Shown here one piece after another: positions 11,394-57,013 of a DNA stretch of 64,000 nt. The DNA is taken from positions 31,667 to 95,666 of the forward strand of contig CAWFLV010000002.1 in NCBI GenBank assembly GCA_963816695.1, in the 5' to 3' direction. This DNA is from an uncultured Actinomycetota bacterium. Its GTDB lineage: Bacteria > Actinomycetota > Actinomycetes > Actinomycetales > Angustibacteraceae. Below the pieces are notes generated by a model that was not told where the DNA came from, ran no database searches, and saw nothing but the letters and a program-made list of their open reading frames with translations. Position numbers and translations under genes: made by a program. Numbering within the stretch: position 1 is the stretch's first letter; every line of letters starts with the position of its first letter.

Positions 11394-11397
11394 GGCA

Positions 11398-16088: not shown

Positions 16089-16123
16089 GGGGCGGAATGC
16101 GGCCTGAGTGGCGGAAAGGGGGT

Positions 16124-19074: not shown

Positions 19075-19081
19075 GGTCTTC

Positions 19082-22687: not shown

Positions 22688-22689
22688 GC

Positions 22690-29371: not shown

Positions 29372-29667
29372 GCCTGAGCAACTACGTGTACCTCGCCTCG
29401 ATCCTGTTCGCGATCGGTGCGGCCACCGTGCTGCTGCGCCGCAACGCGATCGTGGTCTTCATGGGCGTCGAGCTCATGCTCAACGCGACGAACCTGCTGT
29501 TCGTGACGTTCGCGCGCATGCAGGGCAGCCTCGACGGCCAGGTGGTCGCGTTGTTCGTGATGCTCGTGGCCGCCGCCGAGGTCGTCGTCGGCCTCGCGAT
29601 CATCCTCAGCATCTTCCGCGCCCGCCGCTCGGCCTCGGTCGACGACGCCAACCTGCTCAAGCTCTGA
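29368..29667 (+). CDS. nuoK: NADH-quinone oxidoreductase subunit K
   Basis: 99 aa with 3 TM helices ([26 protein letters not shown]). ATGA overlap with nuoJ. Confidence 0.95.
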
Positions 29668-29701
29668 CGGGCACGAGAACCGAAACGGAACCGATACCCA
29701 G

Positions 29702-31639: not shown

Positions 31640-31697
31640 CGAGCACCGTGCTCGACCCCAGCTGCCCTGACCACCCGCGACGCGGAACGGACCTGTG

Positions 31698-37282: not shown

Positions 37283-37286
<4 letters not shown>
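36333..37286 (-). CDS. rarD: EamA/RarD family transporter
   Basis: 317 aa with 10 TM helices. GAGAYLLWGAFPLYF and GYFINPLV are RarD signatures. The GTG start overlaps the korB stop (GTGA). Confidence 0.88.
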
Positions 37287-38358
<1,072 letters not shown>

Positions 38359-38362
<4 letters not shown>

Positions 38363-40284: not shown

Positions 40285-40389
40285 CACCTCAGTACCTAAA
40301 CCATCAACCACCTACGCCATCGTAGGTCGTCCACGATGCGGATGCCGGGTCGGCCACGAACTCGTGTCGCCATCGCGCCAGGTGGCGCG

Positions 40390-42125: not shown

Positions 42126-43115
42126 ATGGCCAGTCCCGCAGGTCGTGTCCTCGCGCTGTTGGGGCAGGTGCAGGACCGGCCGGGCCTCACCGCGCCGCAG
42201 CTCGCGCGCGAGCTGGGCGTCAGCGAGCGAACCGTGCGGCGGTACGTCGCCACGTTGCAGGAGCTCGGCATCCCGGTCGAGGCGGGCCGCGGCAGCATCG
42301 GTGGCCACCGGCTGCGCCCGGGATTCCGGATGCCGCCGCTGATGCTCACCACGGACGAGGCGGTCGCGGTCACCGTCGCGCTCGCCGTGCTGCGAGGCCG
42401 CACCGCCGACGCAGGGGCAGCTGACACTGCGCTCGCGAAGCTGGTGCAGGTGCTGCCCCGCGGGGTCTCCGACCGCGTCGCCGACGTCCTGGCCGCGGTG
42501 ATCCCTCCGACCGAGGGCTGGCTGGCGGGCGGCGTGCCCGACCCGACCGTGCTGGCCAGGCTGGCCACGGGCATCGCCCAGCGGCGGCGCTGCCGCGTCC
42601 GGCACAGCACCGGCGGCGCCACCAGCACCGTGCGCGAGATCAACCCCTACGGCGTGGCCGTGGTGCGCGGCTGGTGCTACGTCCACGGCTGGTGTCACCT
42701 GCGGCAGGCGCGCCGCACGTTCCGGATCGACCGGATCGACCGGGTCGACCTGCTGGAGGCCACCTTCCGGATGCCCGAGCTGGACGTCGTCGCGGCCGTC
42801 GAGCGCTCGCTGGCCCTGGCGCGCACCGAGTGGCCGGTCTCCTTGGTGCTGCACGGCCCGCTCGCGCAGGTCGAGCCGTGGATCCCCCGTCACCTCGGCG
42901 TCTGCGAGGCCGTGGGGCCCGAGCGGACTCGGGTGCGCTCATCGACGAGCAACCTGGACTACTTCGTCCTGCGGATCGGCGATCAGCCGTTCGAGCTGAC
43001 CGTCGAGGAGCCTGCCGAGCTGCGCTCCGCGTTCGCCCGCTGCGCCGAGCGGATGGCCCGCTGGGCCGCGGCGGCCCCCGGCACGGACCGCGCCGCCGTC
43101 CCCGGCGCGTCGTAG
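42126..43115 (+). CDS. YafY-family transcriptional regulator (HTH + WYL domain)
   Basis: The N-terminal HTH is LTAPQLARELGVSERTVRRYVATLQELGIPVEA. The WYL region is INPYGVAVVRGWCYVHGWCHLRQARRTFRIDRI. Confidence 0.85.
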   Translation: MASPAGRVLALLGQVQDRPGLTAPQLARELGVSERTVRRYVATLQELGIPVEAGRGSIGGHRLRPGFRMPPLMLTTDEAVAVTVALAVLRGRTADAGAADTALAKLVQVLPRGVSDRVADVLAAVIPPTEGWLAGGVPDPTVLARLATGIAQRRRCRVRHSTGGATSTVREINPYGVAVVRGWCYVHGWCHLRQARRTFRIDRIDRVDLLEATFRMPELDVVAAVERSLALARTEWPVSLVLHGPLAQVEPWIPRHLGVCEAVGPERTRVRSSTSNLDYFVLRIGDQPFELTVEEPAELRSAFARCAERMARWAAAAPGTDRAAVPGAS

Positions 43116-43125
43116 GCTCCCGGTC

Positions 43126-44238
43126 GTGCCGACGGTCCATCACCTCTCGCGACAGGACGCCCGTCGCATCGCCGTCCGCGCGCAGCTGCTGGACGCCGAC
43201 CGGCCCACCGACGTCCAGGACGTCGTCCGCCACCTCACGCTGGTGCAGGTCGACCACGTCCCGGCCGTCGCACCCAGCCACGACCTGGTGCTGTGGAGCC
43301 GGCTCGGCGCGCGCTACGCGCCGGAGGAGCTGCGAGCCGCCCTCGAGGCGCGGGTGCTCGTCGAGCTGCAGATGATGGTGCGACCCGCTGAGGACGTCGC
43401 GCTCTACCTCGCCGACATGGCGGCCTGGCCCGGCGACGGTCCGCTCACGGACTGGCAGCAGTCCGTACGCGACTGGGTGGCGGCGAACGACGCCTGCCGG
43501 CTCGACGTCCTCCACCGGCTCGACGAGCTCGGGCCGCAGCGGGCCCGCGACCTCCCCGACACGTGCGTGCGGCCCTGGGGGTCGTCGGGGTGGAACGACA
43601 ACCGCAACGTCGGGCGCCTGCTCGAGCTGATGGAGGCGCGCGGCGAGGTGGCCGTCTGCGGCCACGAGGGGCGCGATCGCCTGTGGGACCTCGCCGAGCG
43701 CGTCTACCCCGAGGTCGACCTCGTGCCCGCCGACGAGGCGCGCCGCACGCGTGAGCAGCTGCGCCTGCGAGCGCTCGGCATCGCGCGGTCGCGCGCCGCC
43801 GTGACCGCAGGTGAGCCGAACGACGTCGGTGCGGCCGGCGAGCCGGCCGTGGTCGAGGGGCTACGCGGGCAGTGGCAGGTCGAGCCCTCGCTCCTGGACC
43901 AACCGTTCCGCGGTCGCACGGCGCTGCTGTCGCCCCTCGACCGGCTCGTGTTCGACCGCAAGCGGATGGCCGAGCTGTTCGCCTTCGACTACCAGCTGGA
44001 GATGTACAAGCCGAAGGCCGCCCGCCGCTGGGGCTACTACGCCCTGCCGGTGCTCCACGGTGACCAGCTGGTCGGCAAGGTCGACGCGACGGCGGACCGC
44101 GCGCGAGGGGTGTTCCGGGTCGACGCGCTCCACGAGGACGAGCCGTTCGACGACGCCACGACCGACGCCGTGCGCACTGAGGTCGAGCAGCTGGCGCAGT
44201 GGCTGGAGCTCGAGCTGTCGGCGCCCTGGTCGCGCTGA
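43126..44238 (+). CDS. YcaQ/AlkZ-like winged-helix DNA glycosylase family protein (DUF1006)
   Basis: ARRIAVRAQLLD..., VQVDHVPAVAPSHDLVLWSR, and the C-terminal RRWGYYALPVLHGDQLVGKVDA are typical of the YcaQ family. Confidence 0.75.
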   Translation: MPTVHHLSRQDARRIAVRAQLLDADRPTDVQDVVRHLTLVQVDHVPAVAPSHDLVLWSRLGARYAPEELRAALEARVLVELQMMVRPAEDVALYLADMAAWPGDGPLTDWQQSVRDWVAANDACRLDVLHRLDELGPQRARDLPDTCVRPWGSSGWNDNRNVGRLLELMEARGEVAVCGHEGRDRLWDLAERVYPEVDLVPADEARRTREQLRLRALGIARSRAAVTAGEPNDVGAAGEPAVVEGLRGQWQVEPSLLDQPFRGRTALLSPLDRLVFDRKRMAELFAFDYQLEMYKPKAARRWGYYALPVLHGDQLVGKVDATADRARGVFRVDALHEDEPFDDATTDAVRTEVEQLAQWLELELSAPWSR

Positions 44239-44257: not shown

Positions 44258-44626
44258 GTGGGTCAGCTGCCGCCGTACGCCGTGGTCGGGATCGTCGTCC
44301 TGACCGGCATCGCGCTGTTCCTCGCCGGCACCCAGGGCACGCGACTGCTGCGGCCCTCGGCCCCCACGGCAGCCAAGCTCACGACCTACGAGTGCGGCGT
44401 CGACCCGGTCGGCGAGGGCTGGGCCCAGACGAACGTGCGCTACTACCTCTACGCCTACCTGTACGTCGTGTTCGCGGTCGACGCGATGTACCTGCTGCCG
44501 TGGGCCACGGTGCTGACCCTGCCCGGCTTCGGCTGGCGCACCCTCGCCGAGATGGGGATCTTCCTCGGTGTCCTGGCCGTCGGGCTGGCGCACGCCTGGC
44601 GCCGCGGCCTGTTGCGCTGGGTGTAG
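44258..44626 (+). CDS. nuoA: NADH-quinone oxidoreductase subunit A, second copy
   Basis: 122 aa with 3 TM helices. TYECGVDPVG and YYLYAYLYVVFAVDAMYLLPWA are present. Confidence 0.88.
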   Translation: MGQLPPYAVVGIVVLTGIALFLAGTQGTRLLRPSAPTAAKLTTYECGVDPVGEGWAQTNVRYYLYAYLYVVFAVDAMYLLPWATVLTLPGFGWRTLAEMGIFLGVLAVGLAHAWRRGLLRWV

Positions 44627-44697
44627 ACGCAGGACGTTCGGCACTGCCGCCCGGCCTCGCGCCGACGCGACGCTCGTGATGTCCAGGAGGTGACGTC

Positions 44698-45216
44698 ATG
44701 CCCGTCGTGTGGGTGGTGCTCGGTGTCGTGATCATGGTGTCGGCGGTGCTGGCGAGGCGCAGCGCGCGAGCGCTGCGGACCGGGCTGCTGGCCGTCTCGG
44801 CGCTGTTCGTCGCGGCGGGTGCCGCGGTGAACGCGGCGTACCTGCTCACCGGCGACGACTACGGCGAGTTCGCCGGCGGCTCGTCGTTCGCGTTCGTCCG
44901 CGACACCTGGGCCTCGCTGGTGGTGCCGCACCACCACGTGTTCATCGGTCTGCTGGTGGCGTTCGAGGCCACCGTCGGCGTGCTGGTGCTCCTGGGGCAC
45001 CGCGCCCGCCGGGTCGCCCTGGTGGCCGCCATCGTCTTCCACGTGCTGCTGGTGTCGTTCGGGTGGGGGTTCGCCCTGTGGTCGGCGCCGATGGTCGTGG
45101 CGCTCACGATGCTGCTGCGTGCCGACCGGGCGCGCGTCGAGGCGCTGGCCGCGTTGGCCCACCGGCGCGGCGTCCGCACCGGCGGCGTGAGCTCACGAGC
45201 TCTGCACGGCGTCTGA
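44698..45216 (+). CDS. hypothetical 4-TM membrane protein inserted between second-copy nuoA and nuoB
   Basis: 172 aa. A strong SD (CCAGGAGGTGACGTC) precedes the ATG. It has four hydrophobic helices and an HHH motif, and I recognise no family. Confidence 0.7.
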   Translation: MPVVWVVLGVVIMVSAVLARRSARALRTGLLAVSALFVAAGAAVNAAYLLTGDDYGEFAGGSSFAFVRDTWASLVVPHHHVFIGLLVAFEATVGVLVLLGHRARRVALVAAIVFHVLLVSFGWGFALWSAPMVVALTMLLRADRARVEALAALAHRRGVRTGGVSSRALHGV

Positions 45217-45283
45217 GCACTTCACGCGGCGTGCACGCCGCGTGAGGTGCTGGGCCGCCTGCTTCACGTGATCATCGGGGGAG
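45217..45283 (+). repeat. repeat family B copy 1: 34-bp hairpin + 11-nt spacer + CTTCACGTGATCATCGGGGGAG box
   Basis: The hairpin GCACTTCACGCGGCG-TGCA-CGCCGCGTGAGGTGC spans 45217-45250. The box spans 45262-45283 and contains the TCACGTGA palindrome. The element starts 1 nt after the upstream stop and ends 19 nt before nuoB2. Confidence 0.9.
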
Positions 45284-45301
45284 GGCGGCGGCCGCAGTAG
45301 G

Positions 45302-45907
45302 GTGGCGGCCGTGGCTGTCGACCTGCCCGCGCCGCGCGTGGGACCGCTTGCCGAGGCGGCGCCGCGTCCGCTGCGGCTGGTGCTGAACTGGGGTCGCCGC
45401 TACAGCCTGTGGGTCTTCAACTTCGGCCTGGCCTGCTGCGCGATCGAGTTCATCGCGGCGTCCATGGCCCGGCACGACTTCATCCGCCTGGGGGTCATCC
45501 CCTTCGCACCCGGTCCGCGCCAGGCCGACCTGATGATCGTCAGCGGCACGGTCACCGACAAGATGGCGCCCGCGATCAAGCGGCTCTACGAGCAGATGCC
45601 CGAGCCGAAGTACGTCATCTCCTTCGGCGCCTGCAGCAACTCCGGCGGGCCCTACTGGGACTCCTACTGCGTCACCAAGGGCGTCGACCAGATCATCCCC
45701 GCCGACGTGTACGTGCCCGGCTGCCCGCCGCGTCCGGAGGCGCTGCTGCAAGGGATCCTGCGGCTGCAGGAGAAGATCGCCGCCGAGTCGGTCAGCGGCG
45801 AGGCCATCGCCCGGCGCCGGCGTCCGGTGTCGGCAGCGCAGGTGGCCCGCCCCCTGCTCGGCCCGGACGACGGCGGCCCGCTCGTCGCCACGGGGACCTC
45901 GGCGTGA
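45302..45907 (+). CDS. nuoB: NADH-quinone oxidoreductase subunit B, second copy
   Basis: N2 ligands are conserved: [17 protein letters not shown] and PGCPPRP. An alternative GTG start is at 45311. Confidence 0.92.
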
Positions 45908-46569
45908 CCGCGGCCATCGGCACCCCCGAGGACGTCGCGGGCCGCCTCGCCGCGGCGCTCGGGCTCGGCCCGGACGACGCACCCCTGGCCGCCGAGGACG
46001 CCCAGGGCGTGGTGTGCGTCGACGTCCCGCGCGAGCGCTGGCACGACGCGCTGGCCGCTGCCCGCGAGGTGCTGGGGCTGGACTTCTTCGACTGGCTGAG
46101 CGGCGTCGACGAGCCGGCCGCGGACCCGCCGTCGGTCGACGTCGTCACGCACCTGGTCGTCTCGACGTCCGGCGGCGAGGGGATCGGCGAGGGTGCGGGG
46201 CTCGTCCGGCTGCTGCTGCGCACCCGGGTGCCGGCGGACGAGCCGGTGCTGGCGAGCGTCACCGACGTGTGGGCCGGGGCGGCCTGGCACGAGCGCGAGA
46301 CGCACGAGATGTTCGGCATCGAGTTCAGCGGGTTCGACGACGGCGCCCGCACGGCCGAGGGCCAGCCGCTCGGGATGCGCCCGCTGCTGCTGCCCGACGG
46401 CTTCGAGGGCACGCCGCTGCGCAAGTCCTTCGTCCTCGCGGCGCGCGCGAGCAAGCCCTGGCCCGGCGCCAAGGAGCCCGGCGAGAGCGACACGGGCACC
46501 TCGCCGTCGCGCCGCAAGATGCTGCCGCCCGGCGTGCCGGACGCCGAGTGGGGACCTCGCGATGCCTGA
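45904..46569 (+). CDS. nuoC: NADH-quinone oxidoreductase subunit C-like, second copy (no NuoD fused)
   Basis: GTGA overlap with nuoB2. [16 protein letters not shown] and [14 protein letters not shown] are present. At 221 aa it holds only the 30-kDa domain. Confidence 0.85.
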
Positions 46570-47521
46570 GGCGCTCGAGGTCGTCGTGCGGGTCGTCGCG
46601 GTGCTGGCGGCCTTCCTGACCCTGCCCCTGGTGGTGGGCCAGACCGAGCACAAGGTGATGGCGCACATGCAGGGCCGGCTCGGGCCGATGTACGCCGGCG
46701 GCTTCCACGGCTGGGCCCAGCTCGTCGCGGACGGCGTGAAGTTCGTGCAGAAGGAGGACGTCACGCCGGCGGCCGCCGACCGGCACGTCTTCCGCCTCGC
46801 TCCCGCCGTCGCGCTGGTGCCCTACCTCGTGGCGATGGCCGCGATCCCGCTCGCGCCCGGCGTGGTCGCCGCCGACCTGGACGCCGCGCTGCTGTTCGTC
46901 CTGGCCGCCAGCGCGGTCGGCGTCCTCGGCACCCTGATGGCCGGCTGGAGCAGCGCCAACAAGTACGCGCTGCTCGGGGGCCTGCGGGCGGCCGCCCAGC
47001 TGCTGTCGTACGAGCTGCCGATCGTCCTGGCCGCCAGCAGCGTCGCGATGGCGGCCGGCACGCTGTCGCTCGTCGGCATCGGCGAGGCCTGGCGCCCCTG
47101 GTGGCTGGTGTGGCAGGCGCCCGCGCTGGTGTGCTTCGTGGTCGCCGGCGTCGCCGAGCTGCAGCGGCCGCCGTTCGACATGCCGGTCGCGGACTCCGAG
47201 ATCGTGTTCGGCCCCTACACCGAGTACACCGGCCTGCGCTTCGCGTTCTTCCTGCTGAGCGAGTACGCCGGCATCGTCGTCCTGTCGGCCCTGACGTCGG
47301 TGCTGTTCCTCGGCGCGTGGCACGGACCCTTCAGCGACGCGCTCGGCTGGCTGTGGACGCTGCTCAAGACCGGCCTGGTCGCCGTGCTGGTGATCTGGGT
47401 GCGGGTCGCCTGGCCGCGGCTGCGCGAGGACCAGCTGCAGGCGCTGGCCTGGAAGGTGCTCGTGCCGCTGGCACTGGCCCAGCTCGTCCTGACCGGAGTC
47501 GTGGTGGTGATGATCTCGTGA
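46562..47521 (+). CDS. nuoH: NADH-quinone oxidoreductase subunit H, second copy
   Basis: The ATG lies 8 nt inside the nuoC2 3-prime end. [20 protein letters not shown] and [17 protein letters not shown] are present. Confidence 0.9.
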
Positions 47522-48090
47522 GCGACGCGCAGCGGCCCGACCAGCGGCCCGGCCTGCCCGGCGTCCTGAAGGGGCTGGCGGTGACGGCGAAGAACCTCGC
47601 CACCCCCAGCCACACGGCCGAGTACCCGGACGTCGCACCCGCGCTGCCGCCGCGCAGCCGCGGGGTGATCGCGCTGGTGCAGGAGAACTGCACGGTCTGC
47701 ATGCTGTGCGCGCGCGAGTGCCCCGACTGGTGCATCTACATCGACTCGCACAAGGAGACGCTGCCCGCCACCACCGAGGGCGGTCGCGAGCGCCAGCGCA
47801 ACGTGCTCGACCGCTTCGACATCGACTTCTCGCTGTGCATGTACTGCGGCATCTGCGTCGAGGTCTGCCCGTTCGACGCCCTGGAGTGGAGCCCGGAGTT
47901 CGAGTACGCCGAGCTCGACATCAAGGACCTCCTGCACGACAAGGAGCGGCTGTCGGCGTGGTTCCCGACCGTGCCGCCACCGCCTGGCCCGGACGCCGCA
48001 GCGGCCGAGCCGAAGGAGGTGGCCGCGGCGCTGCGCCCGGCCCGGCCGCGCCGTCCGGTGCGCCCTCCCGCCGACGGGGAGCAGGCGTGA
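47518..48090 (+). CDS. nuoI: NADH-quinone oxidoreductase subunit I, second copy
   Basis: Both 4Fe-4S motifs are present ([24 protein letters not shown]). It has a Pro-rich C-terminal tail and a GTGA overlap with nuoH2. Confidence 0.9.
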
Positions 48091-48596
48091 CGACGCGCGA
48101 CGTGCTGTTCGCTCTGCTCGGTGTCGTGACGGCGGCGTCCGGCCTGCTCGCGGTGACCTCGCGGCAGGTGGTGCACGCGGCGCTGTGGCTCGTCACGGCG
48201 CTGGGCGCGCTCGCGGGCTGCTACCTGGTGCTCGGTGCCGAGGTGGTGGCGCTGGTGCAGGTGCTCGTCTACGTCGGCGCCGTGGTGGTGCTCGTGCTGT
48301 TCGCGCTGATGCTCACGCGGGCGCCGATCGGCCGCTCGTCCGACGTCGACGCCTCCTGGCCGCAGCGCGTCGCAGCGGCTGCCGCAGGTGGCGCGGTCGC
48401 GGCCCTGCTCGGCACGACGCTCGTGGTGGCGGTGCGCGGCCGGTCGGTCGAGGTCGACGACGCGCGCACGGCCGCCCAGCCGCTCGCCCGCTCGCTGTTC
48501 GGGGCGTGGGCGCTGCCGTTCGAGCTGCTGTCGCTGCTGCTGCTCGCGGCGCTGGTGTCGGCCCTGGTGCTCTCGCGCGAGCGGGGTGAGCGGTGA
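48087..48596 (+). CDS. nuoJ: NADH-quinone oxidoreductase subunit J, second copy
   Basis: 169 aa, ND6-like ([24 protein letters not shown]). GTGA overlap with nuoI2. Confidence 0.85.
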
Positions 48597-48916
48597 TCCA
48601 CCTCGCCCCACCGCTGCTGCTCGCCGCGGTGCTCGCCGGGTGCGGCGTGTACGGCGTCCTGGCCCGGCGCAACGCCGTGCTGGTGCTCATCGGCGTCGAG
48701 CTGATCCTCAACGCCGCCAACCTGCTGCTCGTCGCGTTCGACGCCGCCTACGCCGGTGCGCTGCACGAGGGGCAGGTGCTCACGCTGTTCGTCGTCACGG
48801 TGGCGGCGGCCGAGGTCGGCGTGGCGCTCGCGGTGGTGCTGCTGATGTTCCGTCGGCGCGGGGACGTCGACCTGCAGCAGGCGCGCGAGCTCGCCGAGCG
48901 GGTGGACGTCCCGTGA
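48593..48916 (+). CDS. nuoK: NADH-quinone oxidoreductase subunit K, second copy
   Basis: 107 aa with 3 TM helices (GVELILNAANLLLV, VAAAEVGVALAV). Confidence 0.9.
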   Translation: MIHLAPPLLLAAVLAGCGVYGVLARRNAVLVLIGVELILNAANLLLVAFDAAYAGALHEGQVLTLFVVTVAAAEVGVALAVVLLMFRRRGDVDLQQARELAERVDVP

Positions 48917-50811
48917 GCGCCCTCGCCTGGGCGGCACGGGTCGCGGTGCTCGCGCCCGCGGCAGCGGCTTTGGCCGGCACGATGGTGCGGCGCGGCGACC
49001 GGCGCGCGGCGGCCGGCATCGCCGTGGGCGGTGCGGCGCTCGCGCTCGTCGCGGCCGTCGTCGAGCTGGCCACCGCGGGGGACGTCCGCGGCGTGACGCT
49101 GCTCGGGTCGGTGCCCACCGGCGCCGGCACGCTGCACCTGGACCTGCGCGCCGACCGGCTCAGCGCCGTGGTCGCCGTGATGGTGGCGGTGGTCGCGCTG
49201 TGCGTGCAGCTCTACTCGACCGCCTACCAGGCGAACGACCGCCGCTACCGCGCGTTCGCCGCCACGGTGTCGCTGTTCACCGCCGCCATGCTGCTCGTCG
49301 TGCAGGCCGACGACCTCGTCCTGCTGCTCATCGGCTGGGAGGCGATGGGCCTGTGCTCGTACCTGCTGGTGGGGCACGAGAGCGAGCGGGAGGCGGCCCG
49401 GGCCGCGGCGGTCAAGGCGTTCCTCGTCACGCGCGTGGGCGACGTGGCCTTCGTCGTCGGCATCGTGGTGCTGTGGGTGGCCGGTGGCACGACGAGCATC
49501 CACGCCCTGCTGCGGCCGGCGACTCTCGACGCGATCGGCACCCCGACCCTGACTGCCGCAGCGGTTCTGCTCGTGGTAGGGGTGGTCGGCAAGTCGGCGC
49601 AGTTCCCCTTGCACACGTGGCTGCCGGACGCCATGGAGGGCCCCACACCGGTGTCCGCGCTGATCCACGCGGCCACGATGGTCGCGGCCGGCGGAGCGGT
49701 GCTGGCGCGCCTGCTGCCGCTGCTGCTGCACGCCCCGGCCGCGCGGGCGACGCTGGCCGTCGTCACCGCGGTGACGATGCTCGGCGCAGCGCTCGTGGCC
49801 CTCGTGCAGACCGACCTCAAGCGGGTGCTGGCCTGGTCGACGATCAGCCAGGTCGCCTACCTGCTCGCGGCCCTCGCCGTCGTGCCCGCCGCCCTGGGGG
49901 CCGCGCCGTCCGTCGTGCACCTGCTCTCGCACGCGGGGTTCAAGGCCCTGCTGTTCCTGTCCGCCGGGGCACTCGCGCACCAGGTGCACAGCACCGCGCT
50001 CGGTGACCTCGCCGGTGCCGGCCGGCGCGCCCCGCTCGTGGCGGGACTGTTCACGGTGGGACTGGCCTCGCTGGCCGGGCTGCCCCCGCTGTCGGGGTTC
50101 TGGTCGAAGGAGGCCGTGCTCGGCGCCGCCGAGCAGGGCACCGAGGGGCCGTACGCCTGGGCCGCCTGGCTGGTGCTGGTCGTCGGCCTGGTCACCGGGC
50201 TGGTCACCGCCGCCTACTGCGGACGCACCTGGTGGCTGGTCGTGCGCGAGAGCCGCCCGCAGGCGCACCGCGACATGGCCGAGGTCGGCGACGACTCCGG
50301 TGCGCAGGCGGCCGCCGCGGGCGCGGTCACCGTCACCCCCGTGCCGGTGGCCATGACCGTGCCGCTGCTGGTGCTCGCCGTGCCGGCACTGGCCGGCGGC
50401 CTGCTGCTGCTCGGCCCGGTGCCGCCCGGGCACGTCCACCTGGGCTGGTCGACCGCCGTGCTCGCCGGCCTGCTCGCCGTGCTGGGAGCCGGTGGCGCGC
50501 TGCTGCTCGCGCGGCGCGTCGGCGACCCCGCGAGCCTGCTGCCCGACCCGGTGCAGCGCGTGCTCGCCGCCGGGTTCGGCGTCGACGCCGCCCAGCACGT
50601 GCTCGTCGTGCGCCCGGCCCGCGCCCTGGCCCGGGTGGTGACGTCCGGCGACCGCGACGTCGTCGACGCCTACGTGCGTGGCGCCGCCACCGCCGGTCGC
50701 TGGGCGGGCACGGCCCTGCGGCGCACCCAGACCGGCGGCGCCACCGGCTACCTGACGTGGGTCGTCGCGGGCGGCGTCGTCGCCGCGCTCGTGGGGGTGG
50801 GGCTGCGATGA
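48913..50811 (+). CDS. nuoL: NADH-quinone oxidoreductase subunit L, second copy
   Basis: WEAMGLCSYLLVGH and [35 protein letters not shown] are present. GTGA overlap with nuoK2. Confidence 0.9.
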   Translation: MSALAWAARVAVLAPAAAALAGTMVRRGDRRAAAGIAVGGAALALVAAVVELATAGDVRGVTLLGSVPTGAGTLHLDLRADRLSAVVAVMVAVVALCVQLYSTAYQANDRRYRAFAATVSLFTAAMLLVVQADDLVLLLIGWEAMGLCSYLLVGHESEREAARAAAVKAFLVTRVGDVAFVVGIVVLWVAGGTTSIHALLRPATLDAIGTPTLTAAAVLLVVGVVGKSAQFPLHTWLPDAMEGPTPVSALIHAATMVAAGGAVLARLLPLLLHAPAARATLAVVTAVTMLGAALVALVQTDLKRVLAWSTISQVAYLLAALAVVPAALGAAPSVVHLLSHAGFKALLFLSAGALAHQVHSTALGDLAGAGRRAPLVAGLFTVGLASLAGLPPLSGFWSKEAVLGAAEQGTEGPYAWAAWLVLVVGLVTGLVTAAYCGRTWWLVVRESRPQAHRDMAEVGDDSGAQAAAAGAVTVTPVPVAMTVPLLVLAVPALAGGLLLLGPVPPGHVHLGWSTAVLAGLLAVLGAGGALLLARRVGDPASLLPDPVQRVLAAGFGVDAAQHVLVVRPARALARVVTSGDRDVVDAYVRGAATAGRWAGTALRRTQTGGATGYLTWVVAGGVVAALVGVGLR

Positions 50812-52382
50812 GCGCCCTGCTCGTGCTGGTGGTGGGGCTCCCGCTCGCCACGGCCCTCGCGCTCGTGCTGGCCCCGCGCCGGCTGGGCGAGGACGTCGCG
50901 CCCGCCGTCGGCGTCGTCGCCAGCTCGGTGACGCTGCTCGCCGCGGTGCTGACGCTGGCCGCGGCGCCCTGGCGCGGCGCCGGCCCCGCGCTCGAGATCG
51001 ACGCCCCGTGGGTGCCGACGCTGGGCGTGCGGCTGCACCTGGCTCTCGACGGCATCAGCCTGCCCCTCGTGCTGCTCACCGCCGGCCTCGGCGTCGCCGT
51101 CACCGTGCACGTCGCCCGCCGGCCACCACACACCGACCCCGAGGCCGCCCCCACGGTGCGCTCGCTCGTCGCCGCGCTGCTGGCGATCGAGGGTGGCGCG
51201 CTGGCGACGTTCACCGCCGCCGACCTCGTGGTCTTCTTCCTCGCCTTCGAGACGGTGCTCGTGCCGATGTGGGCGGTCATCCGGTGGTGGGGCGACCCGC
51301 ACGACGCCGCCGGACGCCGCGACGCCGCGACGCGCTTCGTCCTGTACACCGCGTTCGGCTCGGCCGTCATGCTGCTCGGGCTGCTCGTCGTCGCCCTGGA
51401 CACCGGCACGAGCGACCTCGTGGCGCTCGCCGCTGCGCACGGGCAGGGCATGGGCCGCGCCGCGCAGGTCGTCGCGGCGGGGCTCCTGCTCGGCGGGTTG
51501 GCGGTGAAGGTGCCGGTCTGGCCGCTGCACACGTGGCTGCCCGCAGCGCACACCGCGGCACCGACCGTGGGCTCGGTGCTGCTGGCCGGCGTCCTGCTCA
51601 AGATGGGCAGCTACGGCATGGTGCGGATCGTCGTCCCCGTTCTGCCCCAAGGGTTCTCGGTCGTCGCGCCCTACCTCGCGGCGTTCGGTGTGGTGGGCAT
51701 CGTCTGGGGTGGTCTGGTCTGCCTCGTCGAGCGCGACCTCAAGCGGCTCGTCGCCTACTCGTCGGTGGCGCACATGGGGTTCGTCGCGCTGGGTATCGCC
51801 AGCGGCACGCCGCAGGGGCTGCAGGGAGCGCTGTTCGCCAACGTCGCCCACGGCGTCATCACCTCGCTGCTGTTCCTCGTGGCCGGAGGGCTGAAGGACC
51901 GCACCGGCAGCGGCCTGCTCGCCCGGATCGGCGGCGGCCTGCGCGAGAGCCGGCCGCGGCTGGGCGCGATGCTCGCGTTCGGCTGCGTCGCCGGGCTCGG
52001 CCTGCCCGGCCTGGCGGGCTTCTGGGGCGAGGTGCTCGCCGTCTTCGGCGCCTGGCAGGGACCCCCCGGTGCCAGCACGGCCTACTGGCGGGTGCTCGCC
52101 GTCGTCGCCGCGGCGGGCACCGCGCTCGCGGCGGCCTACCTGCTGCGGGTGCTGCGGCTGGTGTGGCACGGCGTCCCCGAGGCCGAGGCCGAGGCCGCGG
52201 CCGGGGCCGGGGCCGCTGACGCCTCCCCGTGGAGCTCGAGCGACGCGAGCGGGGTCGAGCTGTGGGTCGGCGTGCCCCTCGTGGCCGCGACCGTGGCACT
52301 CGGGCTGTTCCCGTGGCTGCTGCTGCGACTCACCGAGCCCGCGGTGCAGGGCCTGCTGGCGCTGGCCCGAGGGACGGTCTGA
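50808..52382 (+). CDS. nuoM: NADH-quinone oxidoreductase subunit M, second copy
   Basis: FETVLVPMWAVI, KVPVWPLHTWLPAAHTAAPT and AYSSVAHMGF are present. ATGA overlap with nuoL2. Confidence 0.9.
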   Translation: MSALLVLVVGLPLATALALVLAPRRLGEDVAPAVGVVASSVTLLAAVLTLAAAPWRGAGPALEIDAPWVPTLGVRLHLALDGISLPLVLLTAGLGVAVTVHVARRPPHTDPEAAPTVRSLVAALLAIEGGALATFTAADLVVFFLAFETVLVPMWAVIRWWGDPHDAAGRRDAATRFVLYTAFGSAVMLLGLLVVALDTGTSDLVALAAAHGQGMGRAAQVVAAGLLLGGLAVKVPVWPLHTWLPAAHTAAPTVGSVLLAGVLLKMGSYGMVRIVVPVLPQGFSVVAPYLAAFGVVGIVWGGLVCLVERDLKRLVAYSSVAHMGFVALGIASGTPQGLQGALFANVAHGVITSLLFLVAGGLKDRTGSGLLARIGGGLRESRPRLGAMLAFGCVAGLGLPGLAGFWGEVLAVFGAWQGPPGASTAYWRVLAVVAAAGTALAAAYLLRVLRLVWHGVPEAEAEAAAGAGAADASPWSSSDASGVELWVGVPLVAATVALGLFPWLLLRLTEPAVQGLLALARGTV

Positions 52383-53872
52383 TGGGCGTCCCCGCGGTCG
52401 ACTGGCTCGCCATCGCGCCGGCGCTGCTGCCTGCGGCGGCGGCCGTGCTGCTCCTGGTGGTCGACGCCGTCGCGGGCCGCGGCCGCGCCCGCCGGGTGCT
52501 GGACGCCGTGGCGGTGCTCAGCCTGGTGGGCGCTCTCGCGACCCTCGTGCCCCTCGCGAGCGGCACCCGGCGCACGTTCTGCGCGTCCGACGGCCAGTGC
52601 GGCTGGGTCGCCGGCCACCTCACGTTCGCGCTGCAGCTCGTGGTGCTCGTCAGCGCGCTGGTGTGCCTGCTGCTCGCGATCGCCGACCTGGACGCGGCCG
52701 ACCCCGGGACGCGGCGTCCGCGCACCGAGCTGCTCGTGCTGATGCTGTCGGCCACCGCCGGGGCCGCCGCGCTCGCGGCCGCCCGCGACCTCGCGACCTT
52801 CGCGGTGGCGCTGGAGACCGCGTCCCTGCCGCTGGTGGGGCTCGTCGCCATCACCCGCGACCGGCGCGGGGCCGAGGCCGGGGTGAAGCTGCTGCTGACG
52901 GCGGTGCTGTCGTTCGGTCTGCTCGTGCTCGGTGTCGCGCTGCTGTTCGCCTCGACCGGCTCGCTGTTCCTCGGGGCCCCGGTGTCGACCCGGCTCGGCG
53001 ACCTCGGGGTCGTGCACGGCCTGGGGCTGGCGCTGGTGGTGGCGGGGGCCGCGTTCAAGCTCTCGCTCGTGCCCTTCCACCTGTGGACACCGGACACCTA
53101 CGCCGGTGCGCCGCTGCCCGTGGCCGCGTTCCTCGCGACGGTGTCCAAGACCGCAGGGCTGGCCGCGGTGGTGCTCGTGCTGGCCGTCGGCGCGCCCGAG
53201 CGCAGCACGCTGTGGGCCGCCCCGATCGGCGTGCTCGCGGTGGTCACCATGACCGTCGGCAACCTGGTGGCGCTGCGCCAGGACGGCGCCGTCCGGCTGC
53301 TCGCCTGGTCGACCGTCGCGCAGGCGGGCTGGGTGCTGCTGCCGCTGGCCGGCGCGGTGGGCCACGGTCGTGCGCCCGGTGCCGTGTCGGCGTCCGTCGC
53401 CTACCTCCTGGCCTACGTCACCGCCACGCTCACGGCCTTCGCGGTCGTGGTGCGCACCGCGCGGGTGCACCGCGACGGCGAACGGCACCGCCTCACCGCC
53501 TACGCCGGCCTCTGGCGCGAGCAGCCGGCGCTCGCGCTCGTCCTGGCCTTCGCGCTCGTGTGCCTCGCCGGGCTGCCACCGGGCGTGATGGGGCTCGTGG
53601 CGAAGGTCGTGGCCCTCGTTCCGGTGCTGGGTGTCGAGGCCTGGTGGCTCGTCGCCGTCGCCGTGGTCAACGTCGTGCTCGGCGTGGCCGTCTACCTGCG
53701 CTGGGCGGTGCAGGTGTTCTCGCCGCGCGGCGACGACGCGCCGGCGGCGAGCGCGCTGCGCACGCCGGTGGCCGGACGGCTCGCGCTGTCGCTGGCGGCA
53801 GCCGGCTGTGTCGCGCTGTCGGTGCTGCCCGAGGGGCTCATCGGCCTGCTCGGCGGCGCCCCCCTGCACTGA
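52382..53872 (+). CDS. nuoN: NADH-quinone oxidoreductase subunit N, second copy
   Basis: LETASLPLVGL and KLSLVPFHLWTPDTYAGAPLP are present. TGATG overlap with nuoM2. The stop 53870-53872 abuts repeat B copy 2. Confidence 0.88.
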   Translation: MGVPAVDWLAIAPALLPAAAAVLLLVVDAVAGRGRARRVLDAVAVLSLVGALATLVPLASGTRRTFCASDGQCGWVAGHLTFALQLVVLVSALVCLLLAIADLDAADPGTRRPRTELLVLMLSATAGAAALAAARDLATFAVALETASLPLVGLVAITRDRRGAEAGVKLLLTAVLSFGLLVLGVALLFASTGSLFLGAPVSTRLGDLGVVHGLGLALVVAGAAFKLSLVPFHLWTPDTYAGAPLPVAAFLATVSKTAGLAAVVLVLAVGAPERSTLWAAPIGVLAVVTMTVGNLVALRQDGAVRLLAWSTVAQAGWVLLPLAGAVGHGRAPGAVSASVAYLLAYVTATLTAFAVVVRTARVHRDGERHRLTAYAGLWREQPALALVLAFALVCLAGLPPGVMGLVAKVVALVPVLGVEAWWLVAVAVVNVVLGVAVYLRWAVQVFSPRGDDAPAASALRTPVAGRLALSLAAAGCVALSVLPEGLIGLLGGAPLH

Positions 53873-54053: not shown

Positions 54054-54923
54054 ATGGGCCACCAGCACTTCAACGGGCTGAAGACCGCGGCGCTGCTCGG
54101 CGGGATCTTCGGGCTGCTGCTGATCGTGGGCTCGGTGCTGGCCGGAGGCCGGTTCATCTGGGCCTTCGCGCTGCTGGGCGTCGCGATGACGGCGTACGGC
54201 TACTGGAACAGCGACAAGATCGCGATCCGCGCCATGCACGCGCGACCGGTGAGCGAGGCCGAGCAGCCGGCGATGTACCGCATCGTCCGCGAGCTCTCGA
54301 CGCGCGCGCAGCAGCCGATGCCGCGCCTGTTCGTCTCGCCGACCATGGCGCCGAACGCGTTCGCCACCGGCCGCAACCCGCGCAACGCCGCCGTCTGCGC
54401 CACCGAGGGCATCCTCGCGATCCTCGACGAGCGCGAGCTGCGGGGAGTGCTCGGGCACGAGCTCATGCACGTCTACAACCGCGACATCCTCACCTCCTCG
54501 GTGGCCGCCGCCATCGGCGGTGTCATCACCTCGATCGCCCAGATCGGGCTGTTCTTCGGCGGCGGCTTCGGCGGCAGCGACGAGGACCGTCCCAACCCGG
54601 TCGCCATGCTGCTGATCGCGCTGGCCGCGCCGCTCGCCGCCGTCGTCATCCAGATGGCGATCAGCCGCACCCGCGAGTACGACGCCGACGAGGACGGCGC
54701 GGCCCTCACCGGTGACCCGCTCGCCCTGGCCTCGGCGCTGCGCAAGCTGGAGTCCGGCACGCGCCAGCTGCCGCTGCCGCCGGACCGCGAGCTGGTGAAC
54801 TCCAGCCACCTGTTCATCGCCAACCCCTTCCGGGGCGACGGCTTCTCGCGGCTGTTCAGCACGCACCCGCCCATGGCCGAGCGCATCGCGCGCCTCGAGG
54901 CGGCCGCCGGCTACCGCCGCTGA
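54054..54923 (+). CDS. htpX: zinc metalloprotease HtpX
   Basis: Carries the HELMH zinc motif (GVLGHELMHVYNRD), EYDADEDGA, and the C-terminal STHPPMAERIARLE. The SD GGAAGGGTGAG precedes the ATG. Confidence 0.93.
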   Translation: MGHQHFNGLKTAALLGGIFGLLLIVGSVLAGGRFIWAFALLGVAMTAYGYWNSDKIAIRAMHARPVSEAEQPAMYRIVRELSTRAQQPMPRLFVSPTMAPNAFATGRNPRNAAVCATEGILAILDERELRGVLGHELMHVYNRDILTSSVAAAIGGVITSIAQIGLFFGGGFGGSDEDRPNPVAMLLIALAAPLAAVVIQMAISRTREYDADEDGAALTGDPLALASALRKLESGTRQLPLPPDRELVNSSHLFIANPFRGDGFSRLFSTHPPMAERIARLEAAAGYRR

Positions 54924-56316: not shown

Positions 56317-56805
56317 TCAGCGGTAGTTCGTGAACTGCAGGGCGACGTCCAGGTCGGCGTCCTTGAGCATGCGCTGCACGGCCTGCAGGTCGTCGCGCGA
56401 CTTGCTGGTGACGCGCAGCTCGTCGCCCTGGATGTGCGCCTTCACCGACTTGGGGCCCTCGTCGCGGATCAGCTTGGAGACCTTCTTGGCGTTCTCCTGG
56501 CTGAGCCCCTCCTTCAGGGTCGACTCGATGCGGTACTCCTTGCCGGACGCCTTGGGCTCGCTGCTGTCGAGCGCCTTCAGCGAGACCCCCCGGTGCACGA
56601 GCTTGGTCTGCAGGACGTCGAGCACGGCCTTCGCGCGCTCCTCGCTGTTCGCCTTCACGAGGATCATCTCGCCGCTCCAGCCGACGGAGGCGTCGGTGCC
56701 CTTGAAGTCGTAGCGCTGCGAGACTTCCTTGGCGGCCTGGTTGAGCGCGTTGTCGACCTCCTGGCGGTCGACCTTGCTGACGACGTCGAACGAGGAGTCG
56801 GCCAT
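56317..56805 (-). CDS. yajQ: YajQ-family nucleotide (c-di-GMP)-binding protein
   Basis: 162 aa. [32 protein letters not shown] and the C-terminal LQFTNYR are hallmark YajQ/DUF520 sequence. Confidence 0.92.
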
Positions 56806-56918: not shown

Positions 56919-56999
56919 GGCAGGTTGCCCGAGCGGCCAATGGGAGCGGACTGTAAATCCGTCGCGAAAGCTTCGAAGGTTCGAATCCTTCACCTGCCA
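56919..56999 (+). tRNA. tRNA-Tyr (anticodon GTA), class II with long variable arm
   Basis: Manual cloverleaf. The acceptor stem is GGCAGGT/ACCTGCC. The anticodon stem is GCGGA/TCCGT with loop CTGTAAA. The variable arm is 12 nt. The T-arm is GAAGG-TTCGAAT-CCTTC and the discriminator is A. No CCA is encoded. Confidence 0.9.
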
Positions 57000-57013
57000 C
57001 TGGCTGGACCAGG

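Follow-up and report, generated by a model that had tools for sequence, protein, structure and literature searches.

A conserved actinobacterial nuo2 locus for a second complex-I-type proton pump without NADH-oxidizing genes

The window analyzed here, a 64-kb stretch of DNA from an uncultured Actinomycetota bacterium, carries a complete nuoA-N operon (operon 1, or nuo1; 18715-34780) and a second set of complex I genes, nuoA2 and nuoB2-C2-H2-I2-J2-K2-L2-M2-N2 (nuo2, 44258-53872; Table 1). Gene models for the nuo2 block were based on the listing of open reading frames, codon-position GC, and inspection of start codons; third-position GC exceeds 0.9 in the called frames. Each Nuo2 protein matches its expected Nuo family in Pfam and NCBIfam, with NuoH2 matching NF004741 at 309 bits (cutoff 305). 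From nuoB2 to nuoN2 the genes overlap by 4, 8, 4, 4, 4, 4, 4, and 1 nt, the 8-nt overlap placing the nuoC2 stop inside the nuoH2 start region; gaps of 71 and 85 nt separate nuoA2 from orfX and orfX from nuoB2. A sequence-only reading made without database searches had described this gene set and overlaps of 1 to 8 nt, and the gene models, family matches, and all eight measured junctions agree with it. The motifs it quoted are also present (a 14-residue motif and PGCPP in NuoB2, the paired cysteine motifs in NuoI2, and a 10-residue motif in NuoC2). Family matches and retained ligand and channel residues bear out its claim that the locus encodes an Fe-S wire, which is intact, along with an entire antiporter-type arm. 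Searches of the 64 kb with NuoC1, NuoD1, NuoE1, NuoF1, and NuoG1 (tblastn) revealed no second NuoD, NuoE, NuoF, or NuoG (best nonself E > 0.5); the sole copies are those of operon 1, so that NuoD and the NADH module are, as had been claimed, lacking in cis at the nuo2 locus.

Table 1. Features of the nuo2 region (coordinates in the window)
Feature	Position	Strand	Description
nuoD1	20451-21833	+	in operon 1; sole NuoD in the window, alternative NuoD source; tblastn self-match only
korB	37283-38398	-	2-oxoacid:ferredoxin oxidoreductase, with korA (korAB, 37283-40311)
korA	38359-40311	-	2-oxoacid:ferredoxin oxidoreductase, with korB
nuoA2	44258-44626	+	122 aa, ND3/NuoA family; Pfam Oxidored_q4, E = 4e-29
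orfX	44698-45216	+	172-aa membrane ORF between nuoA2 and nuoB2
nuoB2	45302-45907	+	201 aa, PSST/NuoB, carrier of cluster N2; TIGR01957, 216 bits, above cutoff
nuoC2	45904-46569	+	221 aa, 30-kDa/NuoC domain and C-terminal tail; Pfam Complex1_30kDa, E = 1e-27
nuoH2	46562-47521	+	319 aa, ND1/NuoH; Pfam NADHdh, E = 6e-100
nuoI2	47518-48090	+	190 aa, TYKY/NuoI, clusters N6a/N6b; two CxxCxxCxxxCP
nuoJ2	48087-48596	+	169 aa; Pfam Oxidored_q3, E = 2e-33
nuoK2	48593-48916	+	107 aa; Pfam Oxidored_q2
nuoL2	48913-50811	+	632 aa, full-length NuoL; TIGR01974 over residues 11-625, 420 bits, above cutoff
nuoM2	50808-52382	+	524 aa; TIGR01972, 423 bits
nuoN2	52382-53872	+	496 aa; Pfam Proton_antipo_M
M48 (HtpX-like) peptidase gene	54054-54923	+	Pfam Peptidase_M48; downstream neighbor of nuoN2

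The product of orfX matches no Pfam or NCBIfam family except DUF1361, below threshold, and has no homolog among 82 related loci; assignment as DoxX was rejected, as the sequences are not similar. It is lineage-specific and probably outside the nuo2 system. Other inserts occupy the same junction elsewhere (7 kb in locus L001; a 122-aa ORF in L002). The M48 gene begins 181 nt after nuoN2 and follows it on the same strand in 34 of the 38 loci with enough downstream sequence; it is a conserved neighbor, with a role in the system that is only a candidate one. On the other side, korAB encode the domains POR_N, POR, PFOR_II, and TPP_enzyme_C. In 51 of 60 loci, korA is found upstream of nuoA2 and in every case divergent from it (korAB is not nearby in the other 9); in five deep lineages the two genes are immediate neighbors (121 to 320 bp apart), and the intervening genes vary elsewhere. 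No conserved ferredoxin gene was found beside the nuo2 locus. As a single region contains nuo1, korAB, and nuo2 in Nonomuraea as well as in the window, and presumably also in Streptomyces, the adjacency of korAB and nuo2 may be inherited synteny.

The sequence-only reading mentioned partial nuoA2-N2 sets in Streptomyces genomes, and Streptomyces nuo2 (SCO4599-4608; nuoA2, B2, and H2-N2, with a “nuoD2” reported elsewhere) is indeed orthologous, with the same gene order, NuoC2 tail motif, upstream korAB, and downstream M48 gene. The nearest named relatives of the window copy are Angustibacter, though, and its source is an Angustibacter-like organism (Kineosporiales) rather than a Streptomyces. 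Unlike the Streptomyces locus, the window copy has orfX between nuoA2 and nuoB2, a short NuoC2 in place of one with a long low-complexity extension, and four other genes between korA and nuoA2 where Streptomyces has the AbrC two-component system. An apparent C2-H2 “gap” in Streptomyces was considered as NuoD and rejected; it is the low-complexity tail of NuoC2. Streptomyces nuo2 is expressed as a single operon (RNA-seq), its proteins have been detected, and a conserved antisense RNA is directed against L2/M2. The locus is described there as “function unclear”; as the sequence-only reading had supposed, we found no biochemical description in the literature.

The D-less order was confirmed in at least 586 stretches (one-genome-per-species contigs), and a single 90%-identity cluster of NuoB2 has 526 members, from Embleya to Nocardioidaceae. 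A synteny survey of the kind that reading had proposed found the order A2-B2-C2-H2...N2 kept in 82 loci, none of which has a NuoD, NuoE, NuoF, or NuoG homolog within ∼10 kb. Residue conservation was scored by subunit over 54 to 83 orthologs; the N2 and N6 cysteines and the TM5/7/8/12 Lys/Glu of NuoL2, NuoM2, and NuoN2 are all invariant. NuoB2 has 98 invariant positions out of 201, including the four N2 cysteines (79/79 orthologs), and NuoI2 retains eight of eight Cys (77/77). In the membrane arm, NuoA2 retains the YECG loop, with Asp75 as the TM2 acidic residue (78/78); the E-channel acidic residues of NuoH2 do not vary in 79 orthologs; and the TM3 Tyr of NuoJ2 (75/75) and the membrane Glu pair of NuoK2 (72/72) are retained. 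Invariant residues of the antiporter-like subunits are E143, K227, H252, K344, and K399 in NuoL2; E148, K234, K265, and E408 in NuoM2 (72/72); and E145, K226, K256, and K408 in NuoN2 (71/71). Across eight species pairs, dN/dS is about 0.02 to 0.35 for all ten nuo2 genes; for nuoB2 it is ∼0 to 0.05 in seven pairs and 0.14 for the window and L001. The NuoC2 tail (an 11-residue segment, then ...RR..PPGVPD..WGP) is invariant or almost so and specific to the family, a conservation that is partly ascertainment because the tail motif doubled as search pattern. An AF2 model of NuoC2 gives pLDDT > 90 for the domain and < 50 for tail residues 170 to 221, and an invariant tail predicted not to fold by itself is as would be expected of a partner-binding segment.

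Canonical 14-subunit complex I (operon 1; Mycobacterium smegmatis, 8e9g; Thermus thermophilus, 4hea; Escherichia coli, 7nyh) shares the core folds of A, B, C, and H-N with nuo2, as well as identical Fe-S ligands and proton-channel residues; nuo2 differs in lacking D, E, F, and G in cis and in its 29 to 52% identity to the operon 1 paralogs (29% for NuoA2 and NuoA1). NuoB2 is 52 to 61% identical to canonical NuoB, which is the similarity of canonical NuoBs among themselves and argues that a NuoD is still bound. Group 4 [NiFe]-hydrogenase complexes (Mbh, FHL, Ech, Ehr) have NuoB-, C-, H-, I-, and L-like modules of common ancestry, whereas nuo2 has a complete NuoL/M/N/J/K/A arm and, in its vicinity, neither a hydrogenase large subunit nor maturation genes. 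An Mbh/FHL-type complex was rejected on PDB matches: NuoB2 scores 184 bits against complex I, 114 against Mbh, and 101 against FHL, and NuoH2, best matched by E. coli NuoH (7nyh), scores 219 bits against complex I, with no Mbh/FHL chain at E ≤ 1e-10 and 58.5 bits for the Mbh-related 6u8y. By these matches NuoB2 and NuoH2 are of complex I type.

Outside the nuo2 family, NuoH2 and NuoI2 are nearest to a Dehalococcoidia NuoH-I fusion (49% and 40% identity, vs. 38% and 32% for NuoH1 and NuoI1). Three relative contexts were recovered, namely the Dehalococcoidia cluster, one via its more distant relative, and one via the next-nearest NuoH. In all three, nuoD lies directly upstream of nuoH, between nuoC and nuoH, and none shows nuoEFG, although only one cluster is complete (A-B-C-D-HI-J-K-L-M-N); the absence of EFG therefore looks ancestral rather than a result of sharing. 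These 11-subunit clusters resemble nuo2 in lacking an NADH module and in the remaining subunits and their order, but they retain the nuoD that the nuo2 locus is without, and the conserved NuoC2 tail is unique to nuo2. More broadly, EFG-less relatives comprise cyanobacterial NDH-1, Campylobacter Nuo, and archaeal Fpo-like enzymes, whose donor is ferredoxin, flavodoxin, or F420H2 rather than NADH. The Campylobacter Nuo donor is reduced by 2-oxoglutarate:acceptor oxidoreductase; flavodoxin as this donor is also given in the literature. No equivalents of their accessory donor-docking subunits (NdhS/O/V, FpoF, Cj1574/5) were seen for nuo2.

A NuoD without nuo neighbors occurs on two high-GC metagenome contigs (76% mutual identity; 43 to 48% to the EFG-less-type NuoD vs. 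35 to 36% to NuoD1). This orphan NuoD2 is of the short type, which resembles that of the Dehalococcoidia-type clusters and lacks a segment of ∼34 residues found in NuoD1. It has NRHDW where others have RMDY, and Trp at the position of the quinone-binding Tyr (Tyr87), which is Tyr in the other sampled NuoDs with the motif found; its activity could thus differ from ordinary quinone reduction. Its 90% clusters are named Actinomycetota, and in three Actinomycetota metagenome-assembled contexts WhiB, SelAB, and ProRS lie alongside, and nuo genes are absent to a distance of 10 kb. The complete Nonomuraea gerenzanensis record (11.85 Mb) has only two NuoD-like places, an orphan-type nuoD at 471,070 and nuoD1 at 1,139,780, and carries a D-less korBA-nuo2-M48-DUF520 locus at ∼1.21 Mb, ∼740 kb from the orphan. 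This is the one complete genome in which co-occurrence was seen; a third NuoH-like locus is present there too, and the orphan nuoD could in principle belong to that one instead. Two papers place Streptomyces nuoD2 apart from the nuo2 operon. We infer that NuoD2 is the partner of nuo2 and that the source genome of the window carries a nuoD2.

Missing subunits, frequent insertions between nuo2 genes, and one frameshifted representative in the protein library (P0153) might suggest a decaying or silent duplicate without present function, but dN/dS far below 1 in all ten genes and eight lineage pairs, functional residues invariant over several orders, and retention in at least several hundred species speak against it. 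Streptomyces nuo2 is, moreover, transcribed and translated. Decay is hardly credible, having been largely refuted by the data on selection and conservation. A genuinely NuoD-less complex, in which NuoB2, NuoC2, NuoI2, and the membrane arm work without a large subunit and the NuoC2 tail would shield the N2/quinone-entry region, would explain the absence of NuoD in cis from all 82 loci, the family-specific tail, and the repeated presence of unrelated genes at the old nuoD position with no loss of flanking genes. We consider it improbable, as is the shielding role. To our knowledge, every characterized member of the complex I/group 4 hydrogenase superfamily includes the large subunit, and half of the quinone/active-site pocket is built from it; the NuoD-facing surfaces and loops of NuoB2, NuoH2, and NuoA2 are canonical in sequence; a tail of ∼50 residues is no substitute for a protein of ∼400; and an orphan NuoD is on hand in related genomes.

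A hybrid of the nuo2 products with NuoD1, and possibly NuoE1, NuoF1, and NuoG1, would amount to a second form of NADH:menaquinone oxidoreductase, one that differs in its membrane arm and in the surroundings of the Q site; we think such a hybrid rather unlikely. D, E, F, and G are exactly what nuo2 lacks, and all are present in nuo1, 9.5 kb upstream; the two loci also share a region in Nonomuraea (∼70 kb apart), NuoB2 stays a canonical NuoB, and the Streptomyces papers propose “hybrid machinery” and differential incorporation. With paralogs just 29 to 52% identical, however, NuoD1 and NuoG1 would need to be compatible with two widely different sets of partners, and the ancestral look of the EFG absence and the dedicated short-lineage NuoD of Actinomycetota, found together with nuo2 in Nonomuraea, weigh against sharing. 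Recombination of subunits between complex I clades is, furthermore, rare (Spero et al.). Of the two options first offered for the locus, with no preference between them, borrowing of NuoD1 is thus weakened by the orphan nuoD; a distinct complex is compatible with the data, since nuoEFG are not seen in the three recovered contexts and the conserved divergent neighbor encodes a 2-oxoacid:ferredoxin oxidoreductase. A split operon, originally listed as a case against novelty, becomes the leading explanation with the orphan short-type nuoD unlinked in related genomes.

We therefore favor, with a probability of roughly 0.55, a split 11-subunit EFG-less enzyme with NuoD2 from an unlinked gene and ferredoxin reduced by KorAB as candidate donor. 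The nuo2 block would provide the membrane arm together with the larger part of the connecting module; nuoD would have been taken out of its original position, which was between nuoC and nuoH, and the orphan nuoD2, with Trp for the quinone-head-binding Tyr, would supply the missing subunit in trans to give A2-B2-C2-D2-H2-I2-J2-K2-L2-M2-N2. In such an enzyme, the exposed clusters N6a and N6b of NuoI2 would accept the electrons, which would then pass via N2 on NuoB2 to menaquinone at the B2/D2/H2 pocket, and menaquinone reduction would drive proton translocation via H2/A2/J2/K2 and the three antiporter-like subunits. As the enzyme would have no dedicated module for NADH, the likeliest candidate for its donor is ferredoxin reduced by KorAB, in view of the divergent korAB genes upstream of nuo2 in 51 of the 60 loci; the link to KorAB is one of gene neighborhood only. 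nuo2 is thus a conserved actinobacterial locus for a second complex-I-type, redox-driven proton pump without NADH-oxidizing genes, for which an unlinked gene most probably provides the missing NuoD, rather than a machine free of NuoD.

The second nuo gene set of the window (nuo2) was delimited by ORF listing, codon-position GC and inspection of start codons; third-position GC exceeds 0.9 in the called frames. From nuoB2 to nuoN2 successive genes overlap by 4, 8, 4, 4, 4, 4, 4 and 1 nt, and gaps of 71 and 85 nt, with no overlap, separate nuoA2 from orfX, a 172-aa membrane ORF, and orfX from nuoB2. Every nuo2 protein matches its expected Nuo family in Pfam and NCBIfam, with NuoH, NuoL, NuoM and NuoB exceeding the curated cutoffs; NuoB2 has all four cysteines of cluster N2, and NuoI2 all eight of N6a and N6b. 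Using tblastn with the proteins of operon 1 (the canonical nuoA-N set, nuo1), no second NuoD, NuoE, NuoF or NuoG was found in the whole window, the sole copies being those of operon 1, and nuo2 and its flanks fall short of the canonical 14-subunit set, which includes NuoD and NuoE/F/G. ORF, profile and tblastn evidence thus agree with the sequence-only reading, which had described a block with none of these four genes in cis; all the motifs it quoted occur in the nuo2 proteins. A role for orfX as a DoxX-like or conserved partner was rejected, as it has no homologue in related loci and no similarity to DoxX.

Coordinates of the nuo2 block, its surroundings and the orphan nuoD2 loci (window positions unless a locus is given)
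Feature	Position	Strand
nuoA2	44258-44626	+
orfX	44698-45216	+
nuoB2	45302-45907	+
nuoC2	45904-46569	+
nuoH2	46562-47521	+
nuoI2	47518-48090	+
nuoJ2	48087-48596	+
nuoK2	48593-48916	+
nuoL2	48913-50811	+
nuoM2	50808-52382	+
nuoN2	52382-53872	+
korB and korA (KorAB, 2-oxoacid:ferredoxin oxidoreductase)	37283-40311	-
Genes between korA and nuoA2	40336-41388; 42126-44238	+
M48/HtpX-like peptidase	54054-54923	+
DUF520 protein	56317-56805	-
tRNA-Tyr	56919-57000	
Operon 1 flanks	14321-18203; 34788-35813	
Local GC dip	10001-12000	
Orphan nuoD2	L107:2665-3852	-
Orphan nuoD2	L150:4589-5779	-
Orphan nuoD2 (Nonomuraea)	L211:~11920-13113	+
Methyltransf_28 (PF02636) gene	L107:613-2466; L150:107-1552; L206:14056-15132; L211:6640-7635	
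Junction inserts in other nuo2 loci	L001:2606-9238; L002:11661-16445; L017:7700-12600; L209:1881-10005	
Streptomyces NuoC2 extension	L012:10500-11206	

Operon 1 is flanked by menaquinone-pathway-like genes encoding a MenD-like ThDP enzyme, a chorismate-binding (isochorismate synthase-like) enzyme, a UbiE/MenG methyltransferase and a polyprenyl synthase, and the window looks like a respiratory "island". Between korA and nuoA2 lie genes for a MEDS-domain/HATPase_c_2 protein and for a WYL-regulator and AlkZ-like DNA glycosylase pair; the AlkZ-like gene ends 20 nt upstream of the nuoA2 start. The window also has a single tRNA-Tyr and a local GC dip (0.66 vs about 0.72-0.76).

Corresponding proteins of nuo1 and nuo2 are just 29-52% identical (tblastn), which marks nuo2 as an old separate lineage and no recent duplicate. 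Against solved structures, NuoB2 scores 184 bits with mitochondrial PSST, 159 with M. smegmatis NuoB, 114 with MbhJ and 101 with FHL subunit 7; matches of NuoH2 at E <= 1e-10 are ND1-type chains of complex I/NDH-1, bar one Mbh-related chain (6u8y_M, 58.5 bits). Group 4 [NiFe]-hydrogenases (Mbh/FHL/Ech) have a large subunit with NiFe-binding cysteines, whereas the nuo2 block has none. In an exhaustive search, members of the nuo2 family share at least 60% identity with NuoH2; the next tier lies at 44-49% and is headed by a Dehalococcoidia NuoH-NuoI fusion. NuoH2 is 49% identical to the Dehalococcoidia protein P0133 and 37-38% to NuoH1; the H part of the fusion is 49% identical to NuoH2 and 38% to NuoH1, and its I part 40% to NuoI2 and 32% to NuoI1. 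By both subunits, nuo2 is closer to a Dehalococcoidia protein of the EFG-less type (without the NADH-oxidising NuoE/F/G) than to the canonical operon of its own host.

The relatives of this group keep nuoD. The Dehalococcoidia contig (L084) reads D-HI-J-K with no nuoEFG seen, although at 3 kb it is too short to judge; a more distant relative (L083, HI protein 40% identical to the L084 fusion) reads A-B-C-D-HI-J-K-L-M-N and lacks nuoEFG; a relative of the next-nearest NuoH (L085) reads C-D-H with no nuoEFG within 10 kb. Since L083 and L085 each lie about as far from nuo1 as from nuo2, the sister relationship of nuo2 rests mainly on L084; a third protein search gave a relative (P0141) equidistant from NuoH1 and NuoH2. 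The simplest history suggested by these comparisons is an origin of nuo2 from an EFG-less enzyme with 11 subunits, followed by loss of nuoD from the operon. Compared with such enzymes nuo2 has 10 of the 11 subunits in cis and likewise no E, F or G, but the only NuoD in the window is that of operon 1.

Scanning one-genome-per-species contigs for two NuoC2 motifs gave at least 586 confirmed stretches. Among the matches listed, 80 loci come from Streptomyces, Kitasatospora, Embleya, Yinghuangia, Actinacidiphila, Knoellia, Kineosporia, Jiangellaceae, Actinopolymorpha, Ornithinimicrobium and MAGs. The synteny survey proposed with the original observation found the D-less order A2-B2-C2-H2-I2-J2-K2-L2-M2-N2 in 82 of 82 examined orthologous loci, the Streptomyces loci L011-L082 included; nuoC2 abuts nuoH2 in the window, as in the SCO4599-4608-type order. 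None of the 82 has a D/E/F/G homologue within ~10 kb, nor a tblastn match to a short-type NuoD (lacking a ~34-residue segment of NuoD1). The C2-H2 gaps of other loci were considered as sites of a NuoD remnant and rejected, being filled by an extension or by unrelated genes: in Streptomyces by a repeat-rich, low-complexity C-terminal extension of NuoC2 ending in a 4-nt overlap with nuoH2, and in Knoellia and one MAG by genes for a lipase and a multicopper oxidase and by an entire V-type ATPase operon. The Streptomyces extension, absent from the window NuoC2, spans ~240 residues with RS(V/A)SEGSASQ-like repeats in L012 and other Streptomyces loci. Unrelated inserts, e.g., an ABC transporter, an F420H2-dependent quinone reductase-like gene, a lipase, a multicopper oxidase and a complete V/A-type ATPase operon, recur at the A2|B2, C2|H2 and H2|I2 junctions; as the nuo2 genes stay intact, the operon evidently tolerates fragmentation.

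Values of dN/dS range from 0.02 to 0.35 across all ten genes, measured in eight species pairs, with nuoB2 and nuoH2 lowest. The four N2 cysteines are invariant in 79 orthologues and the eight NuoI cysteines in 77; the TM5 Glu, TM7/TM8 Lys and TM12 Lys/Glu of NuoL2, NuoM2 and NuoN2, the NuoK Glu pair, the NuoJ TM3 Tyr and the NuoH E-channel acids are invariant in 54-83 orthologues. A single 90%-identity cluster of NuoB2 has 526 members from different families. By these sequence measures nuo2 is a functional, selected redox-driven pump, and that it is a non-functional remnant is scarcely credible given its dN/dS values and invariant functional residues. Neutral evolution together with lack of expression, which had been named as a refutation of the novelty, is contradicted by the same ratios and by Streptomyces papers that report transcription and proteins.

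Because a divergent second NuoD is out of reach of ordinary homology searches, metagenome contigs were scanned for a universal 10-letter NuoD motif in high-GC codons, and 120 matches were annotated. Most belong to normal nuo operons or EFG-less clusters; two (L107 and L150) encode a NuoD without nuo neighbours. These orphans (NuoD2) are 76% identical to each other, 43-48% to EFG-less-type NuoDs and 35-36% to NuoD1, and lack the ~34-residue segment present in NuoD1. They read NRHDW where other NuoDs have R(M/L)DY; by alignment, the Trp would occupy the position of the quinone-head-group-binding Tyr87 of T. thermophilus Nqo4. Among 82 high-GC NuoDs sampled, 76 have RxDY, 4 have no motif match and the two orphans alone have Trp. 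They also differ in ENPLG (ESP(K/R)GE elsewhere) and have a C-terminal FFVVGD(V/I)D(R/K). Their 90% clusters have 11 and 330 members, named as Actinomycetota or Actinobacteria MAGs. Three MAG contexts of orphan nuoD2 contain WhiB, SelA/SelB, ProRS and Crp and no nuo gene within 10 kb, and no MAG assembly with both nuo2 and orphan nuoD2 was found via the cluster members.

A complete genome provides the combination. The PLSDB record NZ_LT559118.1, named Nonomuraea gerenzanensis "plasmid I" (11.85 Mb), is evidently the chromosome; it carries nuo1, nuo2, korAB and folate genes. It has two NuoD-like places only: nuoD1 at 1,139,780 and an orphan nuoD at 471,070-472,179 (55-58% identical, with NRHDW) beside DoxX, acyltransferase and folate genes. 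A complete D-less nuo2 lies at ~1.21 Mb, preceded by korBA and followed by M48 and DUF520 genes. One complete genome therefore has nuo1, nuo2 and a single orphan nuoD, whose lineage is the one predicted for nuo2. Separately, the three NuoH-like and three NuoF-like places of this record point to a third, partial system of the complex-I or hydrogenase-like kind and to additional NuoF-like modules; the plasmid collection's gene table has 10 features for the entire record, and a 5.7-Mb record of Embleya sp. NBC_00888 may be a similar case.

Orphan nuoD2 has a Methyltransf_28 gene 0.2-4.4 kb away in three contexts that differ in other respects (L107, L150/L206-208 and Nonomuraea L211); the window has no homologue. 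We take this family to be that of NDUFAF7/MidA, a complex I assembly factor whose methylation target is an Arg in NDUFS2, a homologue of NuoD. The neighbour could serve NuoD2 as a dedicated maturation factor, and it fits with NuoD2 being a genuine complex-I-type subunit.

We favor, with a probability of roughly 0.55, a split 11-subunit enzyme whose NuoD2 is encoded at an unlinked locus. The sequence-only reading was right to single out NuoD as the puzzle, which most likely dissolves into a split operon. A hybrid with the canonical operon was suggested in a paper on the gbn mutant of Streptomyces; assembly of the nuo2 products with NuoD1, EFG included or not, we regard as unlikely, although more plausible than a complex that truly works without NuoD, which we consider quite improbable. 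NuoB2 is 52-61% identical to canonical NuoBs, the same range as among these themselves, and such similarity would be unexpected had its largest partner been lost. NuoC2 ends in a family-specific tail, K(P/A)WPGAKEPGE ... RR..PPGVPD..WGP (residues 184-219 in the window), conserved in 83 sequences; its first motif doubled as the locus search pattern, and the tail (a 24-letter stretch followed by RR..PPGVPD..WGP) is invariant. In a model of NuoC2 alone it has pLDDT <50 (NuoC domain >90), the usual behavior of a segment that would bind another subunit. Its origin as a relic of the NuoD N terminus was rejected for want of similarity.

As to the electron donor, no NADH module occurs in cis at any nuo2-family locus examined. 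The conserved neighbors are korAB and the M48 peptidase, to which many loci, mostly of Streptomyces and relatives, add two families that we take to be a two-component system. Upstream of nuoA2, korA is found, always divergent, in 51 of the 60 loci with enough upstream sequence; in five deep lineages the two are direct neighbors (121-320 bp), and the genes that intervene vary from order to order. The M48 peptidase gene follows nuoN2 in 34 of 38 loci, often with the DUF520 gene next. The neighborhood family survey revealed no conserved ferredoxin gene or other new partner. Both in the window, where korAB lies between the two nuo sets, and in Nonomuraea, nuo1, korAB and nuo2 share one region; gene numbering points to the same arrangement in Streptomyces. 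In Campylobacter, electrons pass from OOR via flavodoxin to Nuo, and photosynthetic NDH-1 uses ferredoxin as donor. From these analogies and the korAB neighborhood, we propose that the donor of nuo2 could be ferredoxin reduced by KorAB.

The observation itself is already known at the annotation level. The block is orthologous to the Streptomyces "nuo2" cluster SCO4599-4608, although the closest named NuoC2 homologues are from Angustibacter (Kineosporiales), not Streptomyces. SCO4599-4608 is reported as a second nuo cluster that forms a single transcribed operon, and a conserved antisense RNA runs opposite nuoL2/nuoM2. A paper that finds it up-regulated in the gbn mutant states that "its function is unclear", and S. 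coelicolor is reported to have more of the Nuo2 proteins than S. lividans. Spero et al., in their phylogenomic survey, scored complete 14-subunit sets alone and do not describe a D-less set. Two papers state that a Streptomyces "nuoD2" is separate from the nuo2 operon. Its locus tag was not found in the literature or supplements. A literature search for SCO6560, which we take to be this tag, found no paper with the term. The nuoA2-N2 sets that the sequence-only reading mentioned for Streptomyces are orthologous to the block (same order, NuoC2 tail motif), and, as it had supposed, no biochemical description was found in the literature; after two decades of annotation the family is not known to have been characterized. 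The present analysis adds its breadth, selection and ancestry, the association with KorAB, and an orphan NuoD2 family marked by the Trp and by a neighboring methyltransferase gene.

Tentatively, and with more doubt than attaches to the split enzyme, Nuo2 with orphan NuoD2 might form a dedicated complex-I-type ferredoxin:menaquinone oxidoreductase that re-oxidizes KorAB-reduced ferredoxin in aerobic Actinomycetota. KorAB would here act as an "anaerobic-type" 2-oxoglutarate:ferredoxin oxidoreductase, and Nuo2-NuoD2 would conserve the low-potential energy of its ferredoxin as proton-motive force or, alternatively, run in reverse to yield reduced ferredoxin. In NuoD2, Trp would stand where Tyr otherwise binds the quinone, and the neighboring NDUFAF7/MidA-like methyltransferase may mature this subunit. 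The analysis thereby offers a concrete composition that can be tested (Nuo2 plus NRHDW-type NuoD2), and likewise a donor (KorAB with ferredoxin).

Few bioenergetic enzymes have been studied as much as complex I, and nuo2 occurs in at least several hundred actinomycete species, antibiotic producers included. If the NuoD2 partnership is correct, it would be a natural complex I quinone site with Trp in place of an otherwise conserved Tyr; if the hybrid model is right, NuoD would be the first common to two complex I isoforms. The ferredoxin:menaquinone oxidoreductase, if real, would be the first respiratory enzyme of its kind to be described in the phylum and would account for the connection of KOR to an aerobic respiratory chain. 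If this is correct, electrons from the TCA cycle would have an additional path to menaquinone, one that conserves energy and avoids NADH, which would bear on redox balance, development and secondary metabolism in Streptomyces.
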